Source: Tequatrovirus NIC06P2
Length of the DNA: 64,000 bases
Direction: 5' to 3' (one strand)
Sequence record: OZ035760.1
Shown: positions 20,927 through 40,999 of the stretch, one piece after another
Layout of the letters: every line of letters starts with the position of its first letter
Numbering within the stretch: position 1 is the first letter of the stretch
Notes under the pieces: generated by a model
Told to the model about the DNA's origin: nothing
What the model saw: only the letters and a program-made list of their open reading frames with translations
The model's database searches: none
Program-made: the position numbers and the translations under genes

Positions 20927-21646
20927 TTAGGATTCTTCTAAATGTCTTTTCTGAAAAGTTGATACCATACTACGATACGGTTCATTTGGATATCCGTGTT
21001 TTATAGCTTCCTTTGTAAATTTTCTCCATCCATATTTAGTTTCTTTCCAAAGCTCGAATAATTCATCTTCATACTGCCATATAGTTAAATGAGAACGCTT
21101 TGCAGCTTTAATTCCATTAATATGCTTTTCTTTTACTGTAGGATTGCTTAGTTTCTTTTTAATAATATTACTAACTTTTCTAACAAAAACTGGGTCCTTA
21201 TATCGTTGCGAAGTTTTTATTGAAGTGTTTAATTTAGCTTCCGGCGTGGATGTGACCTCTTTCATCTTTTTCTTCATATGCTGTATATGATTAGGATTTT
21301 TCCATAAATTTATAGAATGCTTTTTGCATTTTATCCTAGTTTCATCTGCAACCTTTCCTCCTTCACCCCCGTATGACAGGTTAACACAGTTTTTTCCATA
21401 TTTCAATTTACCTGCCATGATATATAATATTTCAGCTTGTACCATTTTATCATAATTATCAAAAACTTCTAAAACCGTTTTTGATAATATGTGGTCATTT
21501 GACACTTTTACACGTTCTATATAATTTCCACTACCAACATACGAATCATTGATGTTATTAGTTATATGTCGACCATAATAGTATTTCTTAATACCTGTCT
21601 TTAAATTTAATATTTCAGTTTTATAGATAGTAAAATATTTTTTCAT
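20927..21646 (-). CDS. GIY-YIG homing endonuclease (Seg-like)
   Basis: N-terminal FTIYKTEILNLKTGIKKYYYGRH...YVGSGN GIY-YIG pattern; basic C-terminal region typical of Seg DNA-binding tails. Confidence 0.6.
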   Translation of the reverse strand: MKKYFTIYKTEILNLKTGIKKYYYGRHITNNINDSYVGSGNYIERVKVSNDHILSKTVLEVFDNYDKMVQAEILYIMAGKLKYGKNCVNLSYGGEGGKVADETRIKCKKHSINLWKNPNHIQHMKKKMKEVTSTPEAKLNTSIKTSQRYKDPVFVRKVSNIIKKKLSNPTVKEKHINGIKAAKRSHLTIWQYEDELFELWKETKYGWRKFTKEAIKHGYPNEPYRSMVSTFQKRHLEES

Positions 21647-22680: not shown

Positions 22681-22944
22681 TTATTTTAACGTTCGCCAAA
22701 TTTTTACTGCTTCACGGCGAGATACTTCTACAGCTCCAAGTTCTACAGCTTTTTGGCGTCGGCGAGCGTGTAAGTCATAATGTTTAATGCGTTTATCTTG
22801 AAACCAAGAACGTTTCATTCCTATTGCTTCTGCCATTTCATGAAGCTCTTCAATATCTCCATCAGTGAACATATGACAATTTTTAGTTGGATGACCGCGA
22901 AGTTTCCATCCATGATTCATTAAAACATCTACGTAAACTGTCAT
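22681..22944 (-). CDS. DUF4031-like small protein (87 aa)
   Basis: Pattern YVD..WGW/HGW...H...D...EELH.FA..IG..R.WFQ...HYD recalled as DUF4031; unverified. Confidence 0.45.
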   Translation of the reverse strand: MTVYVDVLMNHGWKLRGHPTKNCHMFTDGDIEELHEMAEAIGMKRSWFQDKRIKHYDLHARRRQKAVELGAVEVSRREAVKIWRTLK

Positions 22945-23090
22945 TGATTCTTCTCCAAATAAGTTTCGATAATTTTCTGAGCGAGATAAACTGCATTATC
23001 TTCAGTTGCATCTTCTAAGAAACTTTCAAAACACTCTGAAATTTCTTCTGTGTCAATCAACTTTTTTACTTCAATTGGTGTAATTTTCAT
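22941..23090 (-). CDS. Small hypothetical protein (start set at MKITPIEV)
   Basis: Track ORF begins MVLYNYQ, which is the promoter -10 region read as codons; true start must lie downstream of the promoter. Confidence 0.4.
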   Translation of the reverse strand: MKITPIEVKKLIDTEEISECFESFLEDATEDNAVYLAQKIIETYLEKNQ

Positions 23091-23122
23091 TTTTCCGTTT
23101 AAGGGTTTGTTTTGATAGTTGT

Positions 23123-23152
23123 ATAGTACCATAAAGCTTTATGCTTGTAAAC
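23123..23152 (-). promoter_or_regulatory. T4 early-type promoter (GTTTAC, 18 nt, TACTAT)
   Basis: Minus strand: TTTTTCACAAAATGGTTTACAAGCATAAAGCTTTATGGTACTATACAACTATCAAAAC. Confidence 0.5.
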
Positions 23153-23175
23153 CATTTTGTGAAAAATTTTTGAAA

Positions 23176-23202
23176 TAAAAAAAAGGGAGCCCGAAGGCTC
23201 CC
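23176..23202 (-). terminator. UUCG-tetraloop rho-independent terminator
   Basis: GGGAGCCUUCGGGCUCCC followed by UUUUUUUU on minus strand, 3' of the NTase-fold gene. Confidence 0.6.
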
Positions 23203-23204
23203 TA

Positions 23205-24218
23205 TCATTTATAATAACTTCGGTGGTTTTCAAGATAGACCTTCTCAAGGAAGTCATCCCAGAAACCCATGTCTACTTTTTGCTGCATACCGTTCTTAGA
23301 AGCTTCAGTAGATGCTGCTTCTACTTGATCGACCACATCTTCCAAAAACTCTTGAACCGTTTTAAATGGATGTTTACCCAACTTCACGTCGAGAATAAAT
23401 GGAGCGTCTTGAAGTGGATAAACCAAGTCACCAGTTTTGTAAATTTCCAATAGTTGAAGTCCACCACGACAAGCATGGCTCAGAGCTTTCCAGTCAATGC
23501 CTTCGTTGGCTTCGGCCTTACGAGCACGTTCACCGTATTCAGCATCTAATTTGTTCAGTGACTGCTTAAGCTCAATAAGAGAAAGCGTTGTCTGATATTT
23601 ACGACCCAACACAGTGTAGAACGTTTGTGGGCCTGTTTTCTCATGATTATGGAACACCCATTCACAGAATTCGTTTTCTGGAAGACGATGCTTAATATCT
23701 TCAACTTTAGTACGACGCTGCTTAATGGAACCGTCTTCTTGGTAATCAACCCATTGCTCAGGGATTTGATTAACTACTTTCAATACATCACGTAATGCAG
23801 CCAAACGAGAACCCTTGACACCGTATTTAGAAGCTTGCTTGCGGACATATCCTAAATATGATTTCATGTTAGTCGTATAAAAACGAGAACGGTTGTCTTG
23901 AATAAACTTCCACACATCAGGCAAATCAGATTTAACCACTAGTTCAGGTGGAGTATGAAGCATATCCAATGCTACAGTTTCACCATCTGCTGCTAATTTA
24001 AAGAAATATTTAAGACTGTATAGTTCATGGTCAATATCATCTTTAGTGTTTTTAGATGATGTGTTGTTAGTGTTTTTACTCATGTGCTCTTTAACATTTC
24101 CAATAAGAATATCACGAGCAGGAGGAACAAAGATTTCTTTAAAATCTACATCAGATTCTGGAGTAGAAGTTCCATAAAGATGACTACCAAAATAGCTTTT
24201 CATTACTGTTTTCATCAT
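23205..24218 (-). CDS. Nucleotidyltransferase-fold protein (pol-beta superfamily motif)
   Basis: N-terminal HLYGTSTPESDVDFKEIFV (G-[ST]...D-x-D); 337 aa; last gene of a tight five-gene operon. Confidence 0.6.
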   Translation of the reverse strand: MMKTVMKSYFGSHLYGTSTPESDVDFKEIFVPPARDILIGNVKEHMSKNTNNTSSKNTKDDIDHELYSLKYFFKLAADGETVALDMLHTPPELVVKSDLPDVWKFIQDNRSRFYTTNMKSYLGYVRKQASKYGVKGSRLAALRDVLKVVNQIPEQWVDYQEDGSIKQRRTKVEDIKHRLPENEFCEWVFHNHEKTGPQTFYTVLGRKYQTTLSLIELKQSLNKLDAEYGERARKAEANEGIDWKALSHACRGGLQLLEIYKTGDLVYPLQDAPFILDVKLGKHPFKTVQEFLEDVVDQVEAASTEASKNGMQQKVDMGFWDDFLEKVYLENHRSYYK

Positions 24219-24676
24219 TCAGCCTTATATTCAATAACAGGACATACTTTAGCTTTACGAGCTTTTAAAAATTCGACGATAATCGATTTCTTGGGTTGAA
24301 TAGGAGGTAAACCTTTATACGCCCTATCAATATTTTCTACATGTAAAGCATAATCCTTTTTCCATTTATAATCTTTATATTTTTCATGCAGTTGTGCAGG
24401 AATAACAAATGAACCGATAATAAGTAAAACAAGCAAAATGGCAAGTATAAATGCTGATGGAATAAGAGTCCATAAACTACCAAAAATAAGCCATTTCTGT
24501 ATGATTTCTGCGCAGATGATAGTTAGACCTACGAGTATAATACATCCGAAAAAAGAAACGAAAAATGTAGGGATAACAATAGACCAAAAGTATGCGCATA
24601 GTGTCTTAGGTCGTTGCCATTCATCGTTAAACAATTTGAATAATTTATAGTGCCAAGAGTTTTCATTAATAATCAT
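24215..24676 (-). CDS. Membrane protein (153 aa, 2-3 TM helices)
   Basis: Hydrophobic segments FWSIVIPTFFVSFFGCIILVGLTIICA and LIPSAFILAILLVLLIIGSFVIPA; 4-nt overlap with NTase gene. Confidence 0.55.
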   Translation of the reverse strand: MIINENSWHYKLFKLFNDEWQRPKTLCAYFWSIVIPTFFVSFFGCIILVGLTIICAEIIQKWLIFGSLWTLIPSAFILAILLVLLIIGSFVIPAQLHEKYKDYKWKKDYALHVENIDRAYKGLPPIQPKKSIIVEFLKARKAKVCPVIEYKAE

Positions 24677-24678
24677 AA

Positions 24679-25200
24679 TTATCCTTTCATTGAAGGCGTA
24701 ACGGTTGTTAAATACTTAATCATAGCTTCAGCTTCTGATTTTGATAATGAAATTTCTCCATTGTTTTGACGAATAGAAATAAAATCCGGATGACGGTCAC
24801 CACCAGCTTTTAAAACACACATATAAGTATCAACTTCGCCTTCAATATTTGAAATGCTTGAAGCAGTTCCACATGAATGCGGTTTTTGATAAATCAATAC
24901 AGCTTTTCTTCCACCGTTTGACTGTTCATAGGCTTTTAATACATCAAACAAATCAGTTCTTTTATCAATAGCTAAAATGTTATTTTCATCTTCAATGTTA
25001 AATCCTTCGGATACTTCATAAAGTGTCACCCATAAATCGCCAATATCAATAACAGCGTTCACTTTTCCATGACTTTCAAGAGCATGACAAATTTTCTTGA
25101 TTTCGTCATAACTCATTTTAATAATATCATCTCCTTGAATAAGGAAGATGTCATTTTTAAATTCAACGCGAATTAAACCACTTCCACTTGAAATAAACAT
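24679..25200 (-). CDS. Hypothetical protein (173 aa), paralog of next gene
   Basis: C-terminus SKSEAEAMIKYLTTVTPSMKG resembles TKDEAIALKTYLDSVIPTMISK of neighbour. Confidence 0.55.
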   Translation of the reverse strand: MFISSGSGLIRVEFKNDIFLIQGDDIIKMSYDEIKKICHALESHGKVNAVIDIGDLWVTLYEVSEGFNIEDENNILAIDKRTDLFDVLKAYEQSNGGRKAVLIYQKPHSCGTASSISNIEGEVDTYMCVLKAGGDRHPDFISIRQNNGEISLSKSEAEAMIKYLTTVTPSMKG

Positions 25201-25206
25201 ATTTCC

Positions 25207-25761
25207 TCACTTTGAAATCATAGTTGGAATGACAGAATCAAGATAAGTCTTTAGTGCAATAGCTTCGTCTTTGGTAAATGTGACAATATGTGATCGAAAA
25301 TCGTCGATTTGGCGAATAGTTAAGACATCTCCCTCTTCATAACATTTTGATACATTTAAAAGAGTTTCATCATTCTGATTGCAAGCGTTAGTAATAATAG
25401 CATTGCAATTTTTGAGCCATTTTAAACTATGTTTTCTTTCATTAGAATAATAAAAATATTTAATCTTAGCTATAAAACTATCCCAATGGATAACTGATAA
25501 ACACATTGACTCACTTTTAATATTAAATCCTGGGCATGAAGAATAAAAATGAATTTTGTGCTCATCATTGATGCTTACTATTTTATCAGTATAAGGATAT
25601 TCAATTTGGGTTAAATGAATGATTTCACTAGGCGTAAAATATAGCATATCGTCTTCTTGCGTCAAACGATACATGTTATTTACTTTTTCTATAGCCAATT
25701 CACCAAAAAGCGGACTAACTTCTAATACTAATCGTTTCATATTAATCCTTTTTATTGACAC
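25207..25761 (-). CDS. Hypothetical protein (184 aa), paralog of previous gene
   Basis: Shared C-terminal motif with 24679-25200. Confidence 0.55.
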   Translation of the reverse strand: MSIKRINMKRLVLEVSPLFGELAIEKVNNMYRLTQEDDMLYFTPSEIIHLTQIEYPYTDKIVSINDEHKIHFYSSCPGFNIKSESMCLSVIHWDSFIAKIKYFYYSNERKHSLKWLKNCNAIITNACNQNDETLLNVSKCYEEGDVLTIRQIDDFRSHIVTFTKDEAIALKTYLDSVIPTMISK

Positions 25762-26008
25762 GAATTTGTTCTAAAATTTTAGAATATTCCTTTGTATCAG
25801 ATTTACGTACAATCGATACACTATACGGCATACTATCGGTGTCTTTTATAAAGCGTTCCAAATGACACTCTAACAAAATTTCTGGATTATAAATCGTGTA
25901 CATCAAATTACCTGTTGCTCCACGATATTGGCAGATTTCTACTGATTGAACACCATTCCATAATTTTGTTAAAACTAAATCACCTACTTCTAATTTAGGA
26001 AAGCCCAT
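25742..26008 (-). CDS. Hypothetical protein (start at MGFPKLEV)
   Basis: ORF abutting upstream stop. Confidence 0.45.
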   Translation of the reverse strand: MGFPKLEVGDLVLTKLWNGVQSVEICQYRGATGNLMYTIYNPEILLECHLERFIKDTDSMPYSVSIVRKSDTKEYSKILEQIRVNKKD

Positions 26009-26009
26009 G

Positions 26010-26195
26010 TTATTCACCAATTAAAGTTTCAATATAAGAATCAAGATTTACTTTAGCTTCTTCCATAAGAGTTTTGTATTTAATCTTGTTAGCATGTCCG
26101 GAGAAAGCTGATTCATCAATAATTGTTGATGTATGAACAGCTTTACTATACGTCTCAATTAATTCTCTTAATTTAAAAGCCTGCTCACTTGTCAT
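26010..26195 (-). CDS. Small helical protein, member of about 60-aa paralog family
   Basis: MTSEQAFKLRELIETY...LDSYIETLIGE; family pattern M..(S/T).EQ..K...L and (K/E)..L..Y(L/I)E. Confidence 0.45.
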   Translation of the reverse strand: MTSEQAFKLRELIETYSKAVHTSTIIDESAFSGHANKIKYKTLMEEAKVNLDSYIETLIGE

Positions 26196-26357
26196 TACAT
26201 ACTCCTCTGAATCATATCAATAATGTTGTTTACCAGATTATAAGTAAACATTGGGTAATTATATTGAATCATCACATACACAACAAACAAAACTTTCATT
26301 CTCTTCTCCTTGGCAGTTGACAAGATTACTATACCATAACCTTGCCAACTTGTAAAC

Positions 26358-26533
26358 CATTAAATGACGTTTTCAATAAAATTCTGAAGCTTTGTATGAG
26401 CATCAACCATGATTTTCATTTCTTCTTTGGCGAAAGCTATACCTCTTTCCCGAGAAGAACACTCATAGTCAGAAACTGCATTAGCATATTCTTCAATTAA
26501 CTTCATTAAAAACATCTGCTTTTCAGTTTTCAT
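26358..26533 (-). CDS. Small helical protein (58 aa, MKTEKQMFLMKLIEEY...), family member, not in ORF track
   Basis: Hand-translated; start overlaps upstream stop. Confidence 0.35.
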
Positions 26534-26717
26534 TATTCCACCTAATCATTTCAAGATATTGAACTAACTTAGCTTTAGATTTATCCAAATCCTTTTTAGC
26601 TGCTTCTATACCATCGTATGAATATCCTTCACAATGCTCAACTGCTAATTGATATGAATCTATTTCAATATCACGTGCTAATTTAATGATTTTTTCAAAC
26701 TGATCGCATGTTAGCAT
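26523..26717 (-). CDS. Small helical protein, family member (64 aa)
   Basis: MLTCDQFEKIIKLARDIE...KLVQYLEMI. Confidence 0.45.
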   Translation of the reverse strand: MLTCDQFEKIIKLARDIEIDSYQLAVEHCEGYSYDGIEAAKKDLDKSKAKLVQYLEMIRWNNEN

Positions 26718-26719
26718 AC

Positions 26720-26923
26720 TTACACTCTCGTATTATGATCGATAATTTCATCAAGAAACATATCTAACGCTTCTAAAGCATTATCCACTTTAGTTTCAAA
26801 GTCTTTAATGCCTTTATTCGAAATACCCGATGAATACCAAGCAAAGTTAATGCGCTCCTCATCTGCTTTACGAATTAAAGCTACCAATTCCTTAATTTTA
26901 TCAGCTTGTTCGATACTAATCAT
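26720..26923 (-). CDS. Small helical protein, family member (67 aa from MISIEQ)
   Basis: [17 protein letters not shown]...; ATG overlaps upstream stop (TAATG). Confidence 0.45.
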   Translation of the reverse strand: MISIEQADKIKELVALIRKADEERINFAWYSSGISNKGIKDFETKVDNALEALDMFLDEIIDHNTRV

Positions 26924-27111
26924 TATTCCACCACATATGAAAGAGAGAATATTGCACACGCCATGTGAGTTGCAACTTCATCACACATATTATAACGTTT
27001 CTTAAGAAGTTCTACAAGTTCTTCACTAGTAACTTCATCCATGTCGACGAAAAAATCACCATTAATGATGACGTAGATATTTCCTTCTTGATTGAGTGCT
27101 TCAATTTTCAT
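26923..27111 (-). CDS. Small hypothetical protein (62 aa from MKIEALNQ)
   Basis: SD GAGGAG upstream of ATG at 27111, directly downstream of an early promoter. Confidence 0.45.
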
Positions 27112-39542: not shown

Positions 39543-39619
<77 letters not shown>

Positions 39620-39622
39620 TAG

Positions 39623-40288
39623 TTAAAATTTCATTTTTCGACCTTTAAACCATCCTTCTGGAATTGGGTCAGTTTTCTTAATACGTTTAGAAACTTTTTC
39701 ATCTAATGAATGAATCCACATCATACCAAATTGGGAATTCTTTTCACCTTTTTGGTGATTATTTTTAGCATGAATTTCTTTCATTTTATTAATAGTTTCA
39801 AGAGTATGATGCTTATTTAAAAATCGGCTATTATTTAAAAATTTTTCTTTGTATTCAGGAGTTGACCACAAACGGTTAAATACATTTGAACCATTTTTAC
39901 GATATTTTTCTTGAAGTAAAATATCATTTTTAAAACGTGACTTAAACGATTTAGCTCCTTTTAAACTAGCGTCTTTCTTCTGATTTAGCATCTCAGGAAT
40001 ATTTATATGATCCCATCCACCTTCACCGCCAAGTTTTAAATTATACACATCAGGTCTATTTAAAAACTCTTCTGTGACAATATTTTTCTCGGCTTCAAGC
40101 ATAGATTCTTTATCATCAAAATACTCTAATATTTCTTTAGAAAAATTTTCTATGCCATACTTATCTTGGGCTCTTTTTAATAATTTACCAGAACCCATAT
40201 ATCCATCATCTAAATTTTCGGTAGAATGCACACCAATATAAATTTTATTATTAATTTTATTTGTTATTTTATAAAGATAAAAATGCAT
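39623..40288 (-). CDS. segB: GIY-YIG homing endonuclease SegB-like, embedded in the tRNA cluster
   Basis: MHFYLYKITNKINNKIYIGVHS...GYMGSGK GIY-YIG motif; T4 segB lies in the tRNA cluster; track N-terminal extension overlaps a tRNA so start set at 40288. Confidence 0.7.
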   Translation of the reverse strand: MHFYLYKITNKINNKIYIGVHSTENLDDGYMGSGKLLKRAQDKYGIENFSKEILEYFDDKESMLEAEKNIVTEEFLNRPDVYNLKLGGEGGWDHINIPEMLNQKKDASLKGAKSFKSRFKNDILLQEKYRKNGSNVFNRLWSTPEYKEKFLNNSRFLNKHHTLETINKMKEIHAKNNHQKGEKNSQFGMMWIHSLDEKVSKRIKKTDPIPEGWFKGRKMKF

Positions 40289-40334
40289 ATCAGTCCCTAA
40301 TAAAGAACTGAGCGTCTCACGACGAGTCATAAAT

Positions 40335-40421
40335 TGGTGGGGAGTGGTGGAGTCGAACCACCCGAGTCGCAATGACAATGGATTTACAGTCCACACCGCT
40401 ACCTCTACGGGATAACTCCCC
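40335..40421 (-). tRNA. Class II tRNA with anticodon GUA (tRNA-Tyr-like), 87 nt, CCA encoded
   Basis: Hand-folded: acceptor GGGGAGU/ACUCCCC (7 bp), anticodon stem GUGGA/UCCAU, loop CUGUAAA, long variable arm, T-arm GGUGG-UUCGACU-CCACC; anticodon loop identical to E. coli tRNA-Tyr. Confidence 0.6.
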
Positions 40422-40430
40422 TAATTAATT

Positions 40431-40507
40431 TGGTGACCCAGACCAGATTTGAACTGGTAACCTTTCCCTTATGAGGGGACTGCTGCTAACCATTGAGCTA
40501 CAGGGCC
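40431..40507 (-). tRNA. tRNA with anticodon CAU (T4 tRNA-Ile type, reading AUA after modification; tRNA-Met not excluded)
   Basis: T-arm ACCAG-UUCAAAU-CUGGU, acceptor about 6 of 7 bp, anticodon loop CUCAUAA; CCA encoded. Confidence 0.65.
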
Positions 40508-40508
40508 T

Positions 40509-40584
40509 TGGTGCTGATTGACGGAATCGAACCGCCGACCTTCTCATTACAAGTGAGTTGCTCTACCTACTGAGCTAAATCAGC
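40509..40584 (-). tRNA. tRNA-Thr (UGU)
   Basis: Acceptor GCUGAUU, D-arm GCUC-AGUAGGUA-GAGC, anticodon loop CUUGUAA, T-arm GGCGG-UUCGAUU-CCGUC, CCA encoded. Confidence 0.8.
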
Positions 40585-40586
40585 AA

Positions 40587-40673
40587 CGGAGGCGATAGGA
40601 TTTGAACCTATGAGTCGCCGGAGCGACTGCCGGTTTTCAAGACCGGTGCATTAAACCACTCTGCCACGCCTCC
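40587..40673 (-). tRNA. tRNA-Ser (UGA), class II, CCA not encoded
   Basis: Acceptor GGAGGCG/CGCCUCC, anticodon stem-loop CCGGU-CUUGAAA-ACCGG, long variable arm. Confidence 0.8.
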
Positions 40674-40675
40674 AG

Positions 40676-40749
40676 TCTCCGTGGCAGGATTTGAACCTAC
40701 GACATTCTGCTCCCAAAGCAGACGCTCTACCAAACTGAGCTACACGGAG
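40676..40749 (-). tRNA. tRNA-Pro (UGG), CCA not encoded
   Basis: Acceptor CUCCGUG/CACGGAG, anticodon stem-loop UCUGC-UUUGGGA-GCAGA. Confidence 0.8.
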
Positions 40750-40759
40750 TAAATTAAAT

Positions 40760-40833
<74 letters not shown>

Positions 40834-40838
40834 AAATT

Positions 40839-40925
40839 TGGTGCGAGAAGTGGGACTCGAACCCACAAGGAAATCATTCCGCAGCATTTTAAGTGCTGTG
40901 CCTTTACCAATTTGACCATTCTCGC
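40839..40925 (-). tRNA. tRNA-Leu (UAA), class II
   Basis: Acceptor GCGAGAA, anticodon stem-loop CAGCA-CUUAAAA-UGCUG, T-arm GUGGG-UUCGAGU-CCCAC, CCA encoded. Confidence 0.8.
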
Positions 40926-40926
40926 G

Positions 40927-40999
40927 CTGGGAATAAAGGACTCGAACCTTTGCATCTAGCAGTCAAAGTGCTATGCCTTACCAACTTGGCTAATTCCCA
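40927..40999 (-). tRNA. tRNA-Gln (UUG)
   Basis: Acceptor UGGGAAU/AUUCCCA, anticodon stem-loop UAGCA-CUUUGAC-UGCUA, T-arm AAAGG-UUCGAGU-CCUUU. Confidence 0.8.

Follow-up and report, generated by a model that had tools for sequence, protein, structure and literature searches.

Does the nucleotidyltransferase (NTase) encoded at the end of a compact early operon in a T4-type phage act together with the genes that precede it, and on what does it act? The question is raised by positions 23205 to 26008 of a 64,000-nucleotide (nt) stretch of Tequatrovirus NIC06P2 (record OZ035760.1), called here the window. An original prediction had described this locus as an operon of five genes, ending with an NTase-fold protein whose coupling to a membrane protein could indicate a signalling, exclusion or anti-defence module. 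We identify the locus as the early transcription unit of T2/T4-type phages that runs from mobD.2 to nrdC.11, in a fuller form than T4 retains; around it extends the tk-to-nrdC region of a Tequatrovirus, which is early, hyperplastic and transcribed leftward. It is a real but ordinary T4-type early unit: both the gene family and the T4 cluster are already known. Taken as a whole, the locus is probably best explained by an RlaP-type repair enzyme lying in an early unit with independent neighbours. The new points are modest: the boundaries of the unit are corrected, a long and a short form of RlaP are distinguished and found paired in tandem in bacteria, a PUR/PC4-like fold is predicted for the y05I proteins, and a Tudor-y05I-membrane gene order is described.

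NrdC.11 and the RlaP family

The last gene of the unit encodes the ortholog of T4 NrdC.11, a protein of 337 amino acids (aa) that is 98.8% identical to the T4T protein over its 337 aa, and 100% to that of T2. It matches the Pfam family PF10127 ('RNA repair pathway DNA polymerase beta family', or RlaP, a name reportedly due to Burroughs and Aravind in 2016) with an E-value of 2.5e-11 and 44.2 bits for a gathering cutoff of 23; this match spans residues 7-135 only, that is, positions 23-142 of the 249 in the profile. Nearly all of the roughly 240 NrdC.11 homologs listed carry PF10127, and the PHROG label (388) for NrdC.11 is nucleotidyltransferase. A match of nrdC.11 orthologs to COG3541 has been on record since 2006 (PMC1524935). 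Membership of NrdC.11 in the RlaP family (PF10127) is almost certain.

The NTase fold ascribed to the last gene was borne out: the protein has a Pol-beta fold, and its catalytic residues align with those of canonical RlaP. In an alignment of 127 sequences, reaching down to about 25% identity, G11, S12, G16, S22, D23 and D25 are invariant, and D61 and D63 are at least 90% conserved. The Pol-beta motif G-[ST]...D-x-D that had been noticed is present, but it had been read from the wrong glycine, G16-T17 ('YGTS'). The canonical motif, hG[GS]-x10-DxD, corresponds to FGS...SDVD in NrdC.11, with G11-S12 as the G-S pair, ten residues before D23-x-D25. When the NrdC.11 profile was compared by hhalign with 17 canonical short RlaPs from bacterial genomes (95.8% probability, E-value 7.9e-9), G11-S12, D23, D25 and D63 fell in register with the invariant G37, D49, D51 and D88 of the short proteins; the comparison was significant only with this 17-sequence profile, a lone short RlaP sequence giving too weak a match (25% probability).

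An AlphaFold2 model built from the 127-sequence alignment (mean predicted local distance difference test score, pLDDT, of 91.6) has a beta1-GS-helix-beta2(DxD)...beta(D63) core, followed by helices, a beta-rich insert at about residues 155-209, and a C-terminal helical bundle. The C-terminal ~200 residues, where this bundle lies, align neither to the Pfam model nor to the short RlaPs. Foldseek searches with the model gave weak agreement, the nearest solved structures being the kanamycin nucleotidyltransferase ANT(4') and Hailong HalB, and sequence searches of PDB chains with NrdC.11 and with the 127-sequence profile returned nothing relevant. NrdC.11 is predicted to be an active Pol-beta-fold NTase of a long RlaP branch, in which D23, D25 and D63 would be catalytic, and G11-S12 would position them.

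Two other types of NTase had been put forward for comparison, CD-NTase and MNT-type, and NrdC.11 proved to belong to neither. No CD-NTase match was obtained with NrdC.11, none was found among its structural neighbours, and PADLOC returned no match for any of eight proteins of the region, and NCBIfam gave nothing significant either. For the MNT type, the NCBIfam MntA model, which matched nothing beyond the GS..DxD stretch, scored 13.2 bits where its cutoff is 60; a Pfam search found no separate HEPN gene near nrdC.11, and NrdC.11, with 337 aa and extra domains, differs from the small single-domain MNT proteins. It is very improbable that NrdC.11 nucleotidylates a protein or a small molecule, as an MNT-type antitoxin does a HEPN RNase or as an aminoglycoside NTase would. 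Such a target is suggested by the weak MntA match (E-value 0.06), but that match is far below its cutoff, and the characterised RlaPs left E. coli proteins unmodified (bioRxiv 10.64898/2025.12.29.696909). The family-specific Pfam match and the genomic contexts described below point to RNA instead. Nor does the HEPN-like bundle single out an antitoxin, as NTases of the KNTase type usually end in such a domain.

RloC-type anticodon nucleases excise the wobble nucleotide, and this has been proposed as a means to defeat phage tRNA repair. The RlaPs characterised so far are two Pseudomonas enzymes from RtcB operons, PfRlaP and PaRlaP, which add one to two nucleoside monophosphates (NMPs) to RNA 3'-OH ends, prefer Mn2+, and use neither DNA nor protein as substrate (bioRxiv 10.64898/2025.12.29.696909). 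On a nicked tRNA mimic, their preferred site is the 3' end of the 5' half, and RlaP raises the aminoacylation of a repaired tRNA that is short of one anticodon-loop nucleotide; the same preprint proposes RlaP as an antidote to 'smart' ribotoxins such as RloC. In its similarity network, T4 NrdC.11 ('of unknown function') stands in cluster 5, and the characterised enzymes in cluster 1a. Phage RlaPs had also been predicted to restore the nucleotides excised by RloC (PMC7824862).

By homology, NrdC.11 would transfer one or a few NMPs from nucleoside triphosphates (NTPs) onto RNA 3'-OH ends, independently of a template. After an RloC-like anticodon nuclease had cut a tRNA and trimmed a nucleotide, NrdC.11 would put the nucleotide back, and T4 Pnk and Rnl1/Rnl2, encoded outside the window, would then heal and seal the ends to yield a working tRNA. 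RNA-end repair against nucleotide-excising host ribotoxins seems the most likely role of NrdC.11, a view that we hold with some reserve. The idea of an anti-defence function would stand in this broad sense of counter-defence, although not in the form of signalling with a membrane protein by a CD-NTase or MNT-type enzyme. T4 tolerates the deletion of nrdC.11 to mobD.3 (PMC9825161), as expected for an accessory or counter-defence gene.

Long and short RlaP genes in bacteria and phages

A scan with the NrdC.11 profile of one genome per bacterial or archaeal species gave 80 loci with full-length relatives (32-54% identity), whose neighbouring genes were clustered and then confirmed with Pfam. At 17 of the 80 bacterial loci, the neighbours included RtcB (PF01139), Pnkp (PF16542 with AAA_33 and Metallophos), Hen1 (PF12623) or Ro60/TROVE. 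The arrangement is Hen1-Pnkp-long RlaP-short RlaP in Asticcacaulis, and Ro60-RtcB-...-long RlaP-short RlaP elsewhere. Among the 64 bacterial loci with enough downstream DNA, 18 had a canonical short RlaP gene (about 270 aa, full-length PF10127, 228 bits) directly 3' of the long gene, often with a 4-nt overlap between the two (for example L151 5935-7787, L147, L136 and L169, in the set L093-L172). This tandem pairing is not mentioned in the study of the Pseudomonas enzymes (bioRxiv 10.64898/2025.12.29.696909). The bacterial contexts support an RNA-repair role for the NrdC.11 clade. PF01068 ligases and Metallophos genes were also met beside distant NrdC.11 homologs in three metagenomic contexts, where they most likely reflect the neighbourhood of T4 gene 30 (DNA ligase), and they were not counted as repair evidence. 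As for phages, a tblastn search of the phage collection found the long form in T4-like phages (1517 records), and the short form occurs in 80 other records, chiefly phiKZ-type jumbo phages, which have no long form beside it.

The same contexts bear on another use of the activity. NrdC.11 might tail RNA 3' ends for a purpose other than repair, such as the marking of host mRNAs or tRNAs for decay, the upkeep of phage tRNA 3' ends, or the blocking of host toxins directed at tRNA 3' ends. The characterised RlaPs are not very specific, as they label many E. coli RNAs and accept any NTP (bioRxiv 10.64898/2025.12.29.696909), the phage of the window has a tRNA cluster of its own, and a metagenomic contig of phage-like character has YqeY and a PolyA_pol gene of the CCA-adding type next to its NrdC.11 homolog, all of which would suit this explanation. 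We nevertheless consider it unlikely: the recurrent bacterial partners, Pnkp/Hen1 and RtcB/Ro60, are enzymes of healing and sealing that point to the repair of internal breaks, and decay marking is without support. The contig just mentioned (locus L014, 6001-8216 of a JGI contig of 140 kb) has the distant homolog followed by the YqeY-domain and PolyA_pol NTase genes, and a Zeta_toxin/AAA_33 kinase-like gene upstream; it may be a neighbourhood of tRNA-end maintenance.

Several observations weigh against assigning repair to NrdC.11. Only residues 1-130 can be aligned to canonical RlaP, and since the remaining ~200 residues, including the insert at ~155-209, differ from those of the characterised short enzymes, its substrate and product could differ as well. 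At 63 of the 80 bacterial loci, no recognisable repair gene lies within 6 kb. No gene for an RNA ligase, kinase or phosphatase adjoins nrdC.11 in the window or in T4, so that the link to repair rests on homology and on the bacterial contexts. No short RlaP was found in the T4-like phages of the phage collection; because bacteria often pair the two forms, the long one may not be self-sufficient for the published activity. In the searchable literature, we found no experiment on T4 NrdC.11 and no functional data for NrdC.11, MobD.1 or y05I. Finally, among the 78 IMG/VR loci in which the pattern of neighbouring genes was assessed, a homolog of the membrane protein was encoded upstream on the same strand in 43, in several genera including Acinetobacter phages, and a looser association of NTase and membrane protein might exist within Tevenvirinae. 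We conclude that NrdC.11 cannot simply be equated with the characterised RlaPs, given the limited alignment, and that its normal partner may be a short paralog missing from T4.

The transcription unit and the neighbours of nrdC.11

The five open reading frames (ORFs) first described are all present, on the minus strand, but the unit does not start at 26008. Two further genes precede them, and an early-type promoter precedes these, so that the unit has seven genes: from the promoter, mobD.2, DUF7438, Tudor, two y05I paralogs, the membrane protein gene and nrdC.11, and then a UUCG terminator. The features are as follows, with junction spacings counted from the annotated ATG starts.

26328..26356, minus strand: predicted T4 early-type promoter at the unit start (TTTACA, 17-nt spacer, TG-extended TATAGT; 10/12 with TG in a consensus scan)
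26195..26299, minus strand: mobD.2 ortholog, 34 aa (tblastn, 94-97% identity to mobD.2 of T4T and ACG-C40); junction with the 61-aa gene, -1 nt (the mobD.2 stop overlaps the next start)
26010..26195, minus strand: 61-aa DUF7438 protein (PF24219, E-value 1.4e-15), not present in T4T; junction with the Tudor gene, +1 nt
25742..26008, minus strand: 88-aa phage Tudor-domain protein (PF24144, E-value 1e-39), the 'small protein' of the original prediction, absent from T4; junction with y05I-A, +1 nt
25207..25740, minus strand: y05I-A, the MobD.1 ortholog, 177 aa from the ATG (184 aa in a longer form); junction with y05I-B, +6 nt
24679..25200, minus strand: y05I-B, a 173-aa Tequatrovirus-specific paralog of MobD.1 (PF24449 and PF24448), absent from T4; junction with the membrane protein gene, +2 nt
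24215..24676, minus strand: 153-aa membrane protein, PHROG 944 (hydrophobic spans at about 25-98), absent from T4; junction with nrdC.11, -4 nt (ATGA)
23205..24218, minus strand: nrdC.11, long-form RlaP-family Pol-beta NTase, 337 aa (336 aa from the second ATG)
23176..23203, minus strand: predicted intrinsic terminator (8-bp stem, UUCG loop, U8 tract)
23123..23151, minus strand: next predicted early-type promoter (TTTACA, 17-nt spacer, TACTAT with TG)

The strong terminator claimed for the end of the unit was recovered: its hairpin, AGGGAGCC-UUCG-GGCUCCCU at 23203-23184, is followed by U8 and has a folding free energy of -18.6 kcal/mol (z -4.7 versus shuffles). T4T keeps the same terminator 3' of nrdC.11, and the same promoter element 5' of mobD.2. 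The second promoter heads a downstream unit (63-aa ORF, DUF4031, nrdC.10), and the same element is found 5' of nrdC.10 in T4T. As promoter, terminator and second promoter frame mobD.2-nrdC.11 in T4T too, the unit boundaries are conserved; the promoters and the terminator presumably function as such, to judge from their sequences. A strong sigma-70-like site was also noted inside y05I-A, at 25638-25665 on the minus strand (TTGACG-16-TATATT with TG, 10/12), and its position is conserved in T4T mobD.1 (L002 3708-3735); the genes that follow could be transcribed from it as an internal promoter.

Of the 4-nt overlaps that had been reported between the five genes, only that of the membrane protein gene with nrdC.11 exists (ATGA, 24215-24218), the others being spacings of +1, +6 and +2 nt. 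Overlaps of 4 nt and 1 nt recur throughout the same region in an annotated relative, ACG-C40, and every large ORF between 372 and 45736 of the window lies on the minus strand, so that tight same-strand packing tells little by itself. The genes around the locus are rI, tk and the nrdC.x series. By megablast, the region 23000-26300 matched 695 phage records, nearly all of them T4-like phages of Escherichia, Shigella or Yersinia, with at least 80% of its length covered in 360 of them, and vB_EcoM_ACG-C40 as the top match (97.9%). The locus maps to the conserved mobD.2-nrdC.11 cluster of T4, for which no known unrelated role was found.

The coupling of NTase and membrane protein, which the original prediction had considered, did not hold up as an obligate one: it amounts to a partial synteny within Straboviridae. 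The set in T4T is mobD.2, mobD.1, mobD (an HNH homing endonuclease) and nrdC.11, and T4T is without the 61-aa gene, the Tudor gene, the second y05I paralog and the membrane protein gene. In the tblastn search that gave 1517 records for NrdC.11, the membrane protein was found in 930 records, Tudor in 406, and y05I-B in 483, of which 433 above 90% identity (Tequatrovirus only); some 590 records thus have NrdC.11 and no detectable membrane homolog. Direct adjacency of the membrane protein gene to nrdC.11 is confined to loci whose NrdC.11 has at least 76% identity to that of the present phage. In Klebsiella, Enterobacter, Yersinia and Acinetobacter phages, the membrane protein gene lies 350-1800 nt upstream, with one to three unrelated genes in between, and it was absent from the RB43-, Aeromonas- and Vibrio-type phages examined. 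Immediately before nrdC.11, different phages have genes from at least six unrelated families, several of which show the same 4-nt overlap. A conserved soluble partner directly 5' of nrdC.11 was likewise sought in the 78 phage loci and rejected, the neighbours falling in many unrelated families. None of the 80 bacterial NrdC.11-like genes has a homolog of the membrane, y05I, Tudor, DUF4031 or NrdC.10 proteins beside it. Because the upstream gene varies, T4 has no membrane protein gene and the bacterial loci lack these families, an obligate functional coupling of NrdC.11 to the membrane protein is not supported.

These patterns also bear on the proposal that the NTase and the membrane protein form a pair for signalling, exclusion or anti-defence, in which the former would synthesise a nucleotide or oligonucleotide signal or else modify a host target with nucleotides, in the manner of CBASS, of Hailong (HalB NTase with HalA membrane effector), or of a phage mimic of such a signal. 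The ATGA overlap of the two genes, seen here and in RB69, would fit such a pair, as would the same-strand upstream position of the membrane homolog at the 43 loci mentioned above. Against this stand the absence of the membrane protein gene from T4 and from the other records without it, the intervening genes in Klebsiella and Enterobacter phages, the recurrence of the overlap with whichever unrelated gene precedes nrdC.11, and the bacterial loci, together with the empty PADLOC search and the lack of a CD-NTase among the structural neighbours. We give this explanation hardly any credence.

The other genes show a regularity of their own. A y05I gene, either full-length or reduced to a C-domain of 65-107 aa, lies directly upstream of the membrane protein gene in 32-34 IMG/VR loci, and a Tudor gene directly upstream of y05I in 18 of the 78. 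The order Tudor, y05I, membrane protein gene is conserved, and its distance to nrdC.11 varies; in 33 of the 78 loci, NrdC.11 occurs with none of the three. The claim of two tandem paralogs is correct, although they are distant (22% identity, blastp E-value 2.8e-6), with a common C-terminal EA.A.K.YL..V.P.M helix. Both match PF24449 and PF24448, the N- and C-domains of a 'y05I-like putative transcription factor' (1e-21 to 1e-39). The family is tiny and phage-restricted, with 38 clusters at 90% identity, and 24 representatives among 1.84 billion proteins at an E-value of 1e-3.

An AlphaFold2 model of y05I-A predicts residues 12-100 well (pLDDT 76-92), and the C-domain with low confidence. Its secondary structure consists of three beta-beta-beta(-beta)-alpha units, and the predicted fold is Pur-alpha/PC4-like. 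In PC4-like folds, two beta-beta-beta-beta-alpha units, within or between chains, make a surface that binds single-stranded DNA or RNA (PMC7549692), and the y05I repeats pair in this way in the model. The likeness to Pur-alpha and to the PC4-like Whirly and MRP1/2 proteins is one of fold, with no sequence similarity (5% identity to Pur-alpha) and no match to a PUR family in Pfam, where PF24449 and PF24448 alone were hit. The y05I paralogs are predicted single-stranded nucleic-acid binders, to be described as having a PUR/PC4-like fold and not as PUR members. The N-domain would comprise repeats I and II, and the C-domain the third repeat, whose helix holds the motif common to both paralogs; by analogy, it could mediate homo- or heterodimerisation. 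One natural chimera, protein P0261, has its N-terminal two thirds from y05I-A and its C-terminal third from y05I-B, which implies that, in some phages, the two tandem genes have recombined or a deletion has joined them. The y05I profile also matches, with its C-terminal helix motif, three stretches of a 3120-aa protein, P0286 (E-value 1.5e-9); the motif may be repeated in this protein, or the matches may stem from its composition.

The 153-aa protein is a multi-pass membrane protein, as had been stated, with 2-4 hydrophobic spans. Its 45 homologs share an N-terminal SWHY...P..LC.YFW motif, predicted to be cytoplasmic, and a C-terminal K.K.CP motif, and it has no significant match in Pfam, NCBIfam or PADLOC.

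Could the whole block be one RNA-handling module, in which the task of y05I would be to bind broken RNA or anneal it, that of the membrane protein to give the complex its location, and that of NrdC.11 to fill in missing nucleotides? The fold of y05I resembles that of Pur-alpha, MRP and Whirly proteins, and MRP1/2 are RNA-binding proteins (PMC7549692). Co-transcription from a single predicted early promoter would agree with a module, as would the maintenance across Tevenvirinae genera, inside a plastic region, of the order Tudor, y05I (or its C-domain alone), membrane protein, 0-3 genes, nrdC.11. T4-like genomes are, however, globally syntenic, which makes gene order weak evidence. Of the set, T4 has MobD.1 and NrdC.11 only; the 33 loci with NrdC.11 alone and the 80 bacterial loci argue in the same direction, and the model of the y05I C-domain is of low confidence. 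We think a single module rather unlikely. The six other genes of the unit would instead be accessory and independent, as part of an early region that is hyperplastic, and their co-transcription would reflect the dense packing usual for T4 early genes. T4 would have lost the fuller form, and it carries the mobD homing endonuclease in the place of y05I-B and the membrane protein gene.

Some features of the surroundings may be added. Four tandem DUF7438 (PF24219) paralogs of 61, 57, 64 and 79 aa lie at 26010-26959 on the minus strand: the extra 61-aa gene, mobD.2a, mobD.3 and mobD.4, the last three at 26360-26959. The array is interrupted by mobD.2 and the early promoter, and one paralog bears an apparently unsupported PHROGs name, 'helicase loader'. 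On the other side of nrdC.11, between it and nrdC.10, are a 63-aa ORF (22941-23132, minus strand) and a DUF4031 protein of 87 aa (PF13223, E-value 8e-22; 22681-22944, minus strand); this pair is missing from T4 and recurs downstream of nrdC.11 in 8 of the 78 IMG/VR loci. A 239-aa ORF (20927-21646, minus strand) with a GIY-YIG-like N-terminus and no Pfam match overlaps the nrdC.10 stop by 4 nt. A homolog lies directly upstream of nrdC.11 in IMG/VR locus L019, at the junction where T4 has the unrelated HNH MobD (T4T L002 4241-5020); homing endonucleases therefore seem to have landed repeatedly on the 5' side of nrdC.11. Further away, at 39543-40999 on the minus strand, is a T4-type tRNA cluster with nine ARAGORN calls. 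One of them, tRNA-Tyr(GTA) at 40335-40421, has a borderline Rfam score (30.3 for a gathering score of 29) and overlaps the start of a 257-aa ORF (39623-40396), probably a seg-type homing endonuclease; to our knowledge, T4 has no tRNA-Tyr(GTA).

Comparison with known systems

The closest counterpart is T4 NrdC.11 itself, which is orthologous and has the same terminator and flanking early promoters. The difference lies upstream: its neighbour is MobD in T4, whereas here the membrane protein and the second y05I precede it, with Tudor and the extra DUF7438 protein further upstream. With PfRlaP and PaRlaP, NrdC.11 has in common the Pfam family, the GS / DxD / D set and, according to its model, a helical domain after the NTase domain. 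These enzymes are of about 270 aa, whereas the long form to which NrdC.11 belongs has about 310-350 aa, with the beta-rich insert and a divergent C-terminal bundle. Relatives of NrdC.11 in bacteria likewise reside in RNA-repair operons; this association with repair genes is seen in the clade, but not in the window or in T4. ANT(4') and Hailong HalB show 8-14% identity with NrdC.11 and no match at the level of sequence, and their activities are on aminoglycosides and in the de novo synthesis of oligo-dA, respectively.

A bolder scheme would make of the long RlaPs a distinct class, the obligate partner in bacterial repair operons of the short form, of which T4-like phages took the long member only, perhaps joined with y05I, Tudor and a membrane anchor into a tRNA-rebuilding station directed against RloC. 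We regard it as quite unlikely; if true, this early-expressed station would be a counter-counter-defence step that is missing from the classical T4 Pnk/Rnl1 story. For the RlaP family, the simpler hypothesis of nucleotide restoration has been published before (PMC7824862; bioRxiv 10.64898/2025.12.29.696909), and the preprint explicitly places T4 NrdC.11 in the family.

The proposed repair role of NrdC.11 has its nearest parallel within T4. Pnk and Rnl1 of this phage repair the tRNA that is cut by the PrrC anticodon nuclease. The logic proposed here is the same, a phage enzyme acting on a cleaved host tRNA to beat a suicidal ribotoxin. Pnk and Rnl1 heal and seal ends, however, whereas NrdC.11 would add nucleotides, and nrdC.11 is not beside pseT or rnlA. 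Were NrdC.11 to put the trimmed nucleotide back, it would supply the phage response to RloC that has been missing so far, and a third enzymatic step in the textbook T4 Pnk/Rnl1 pathway.

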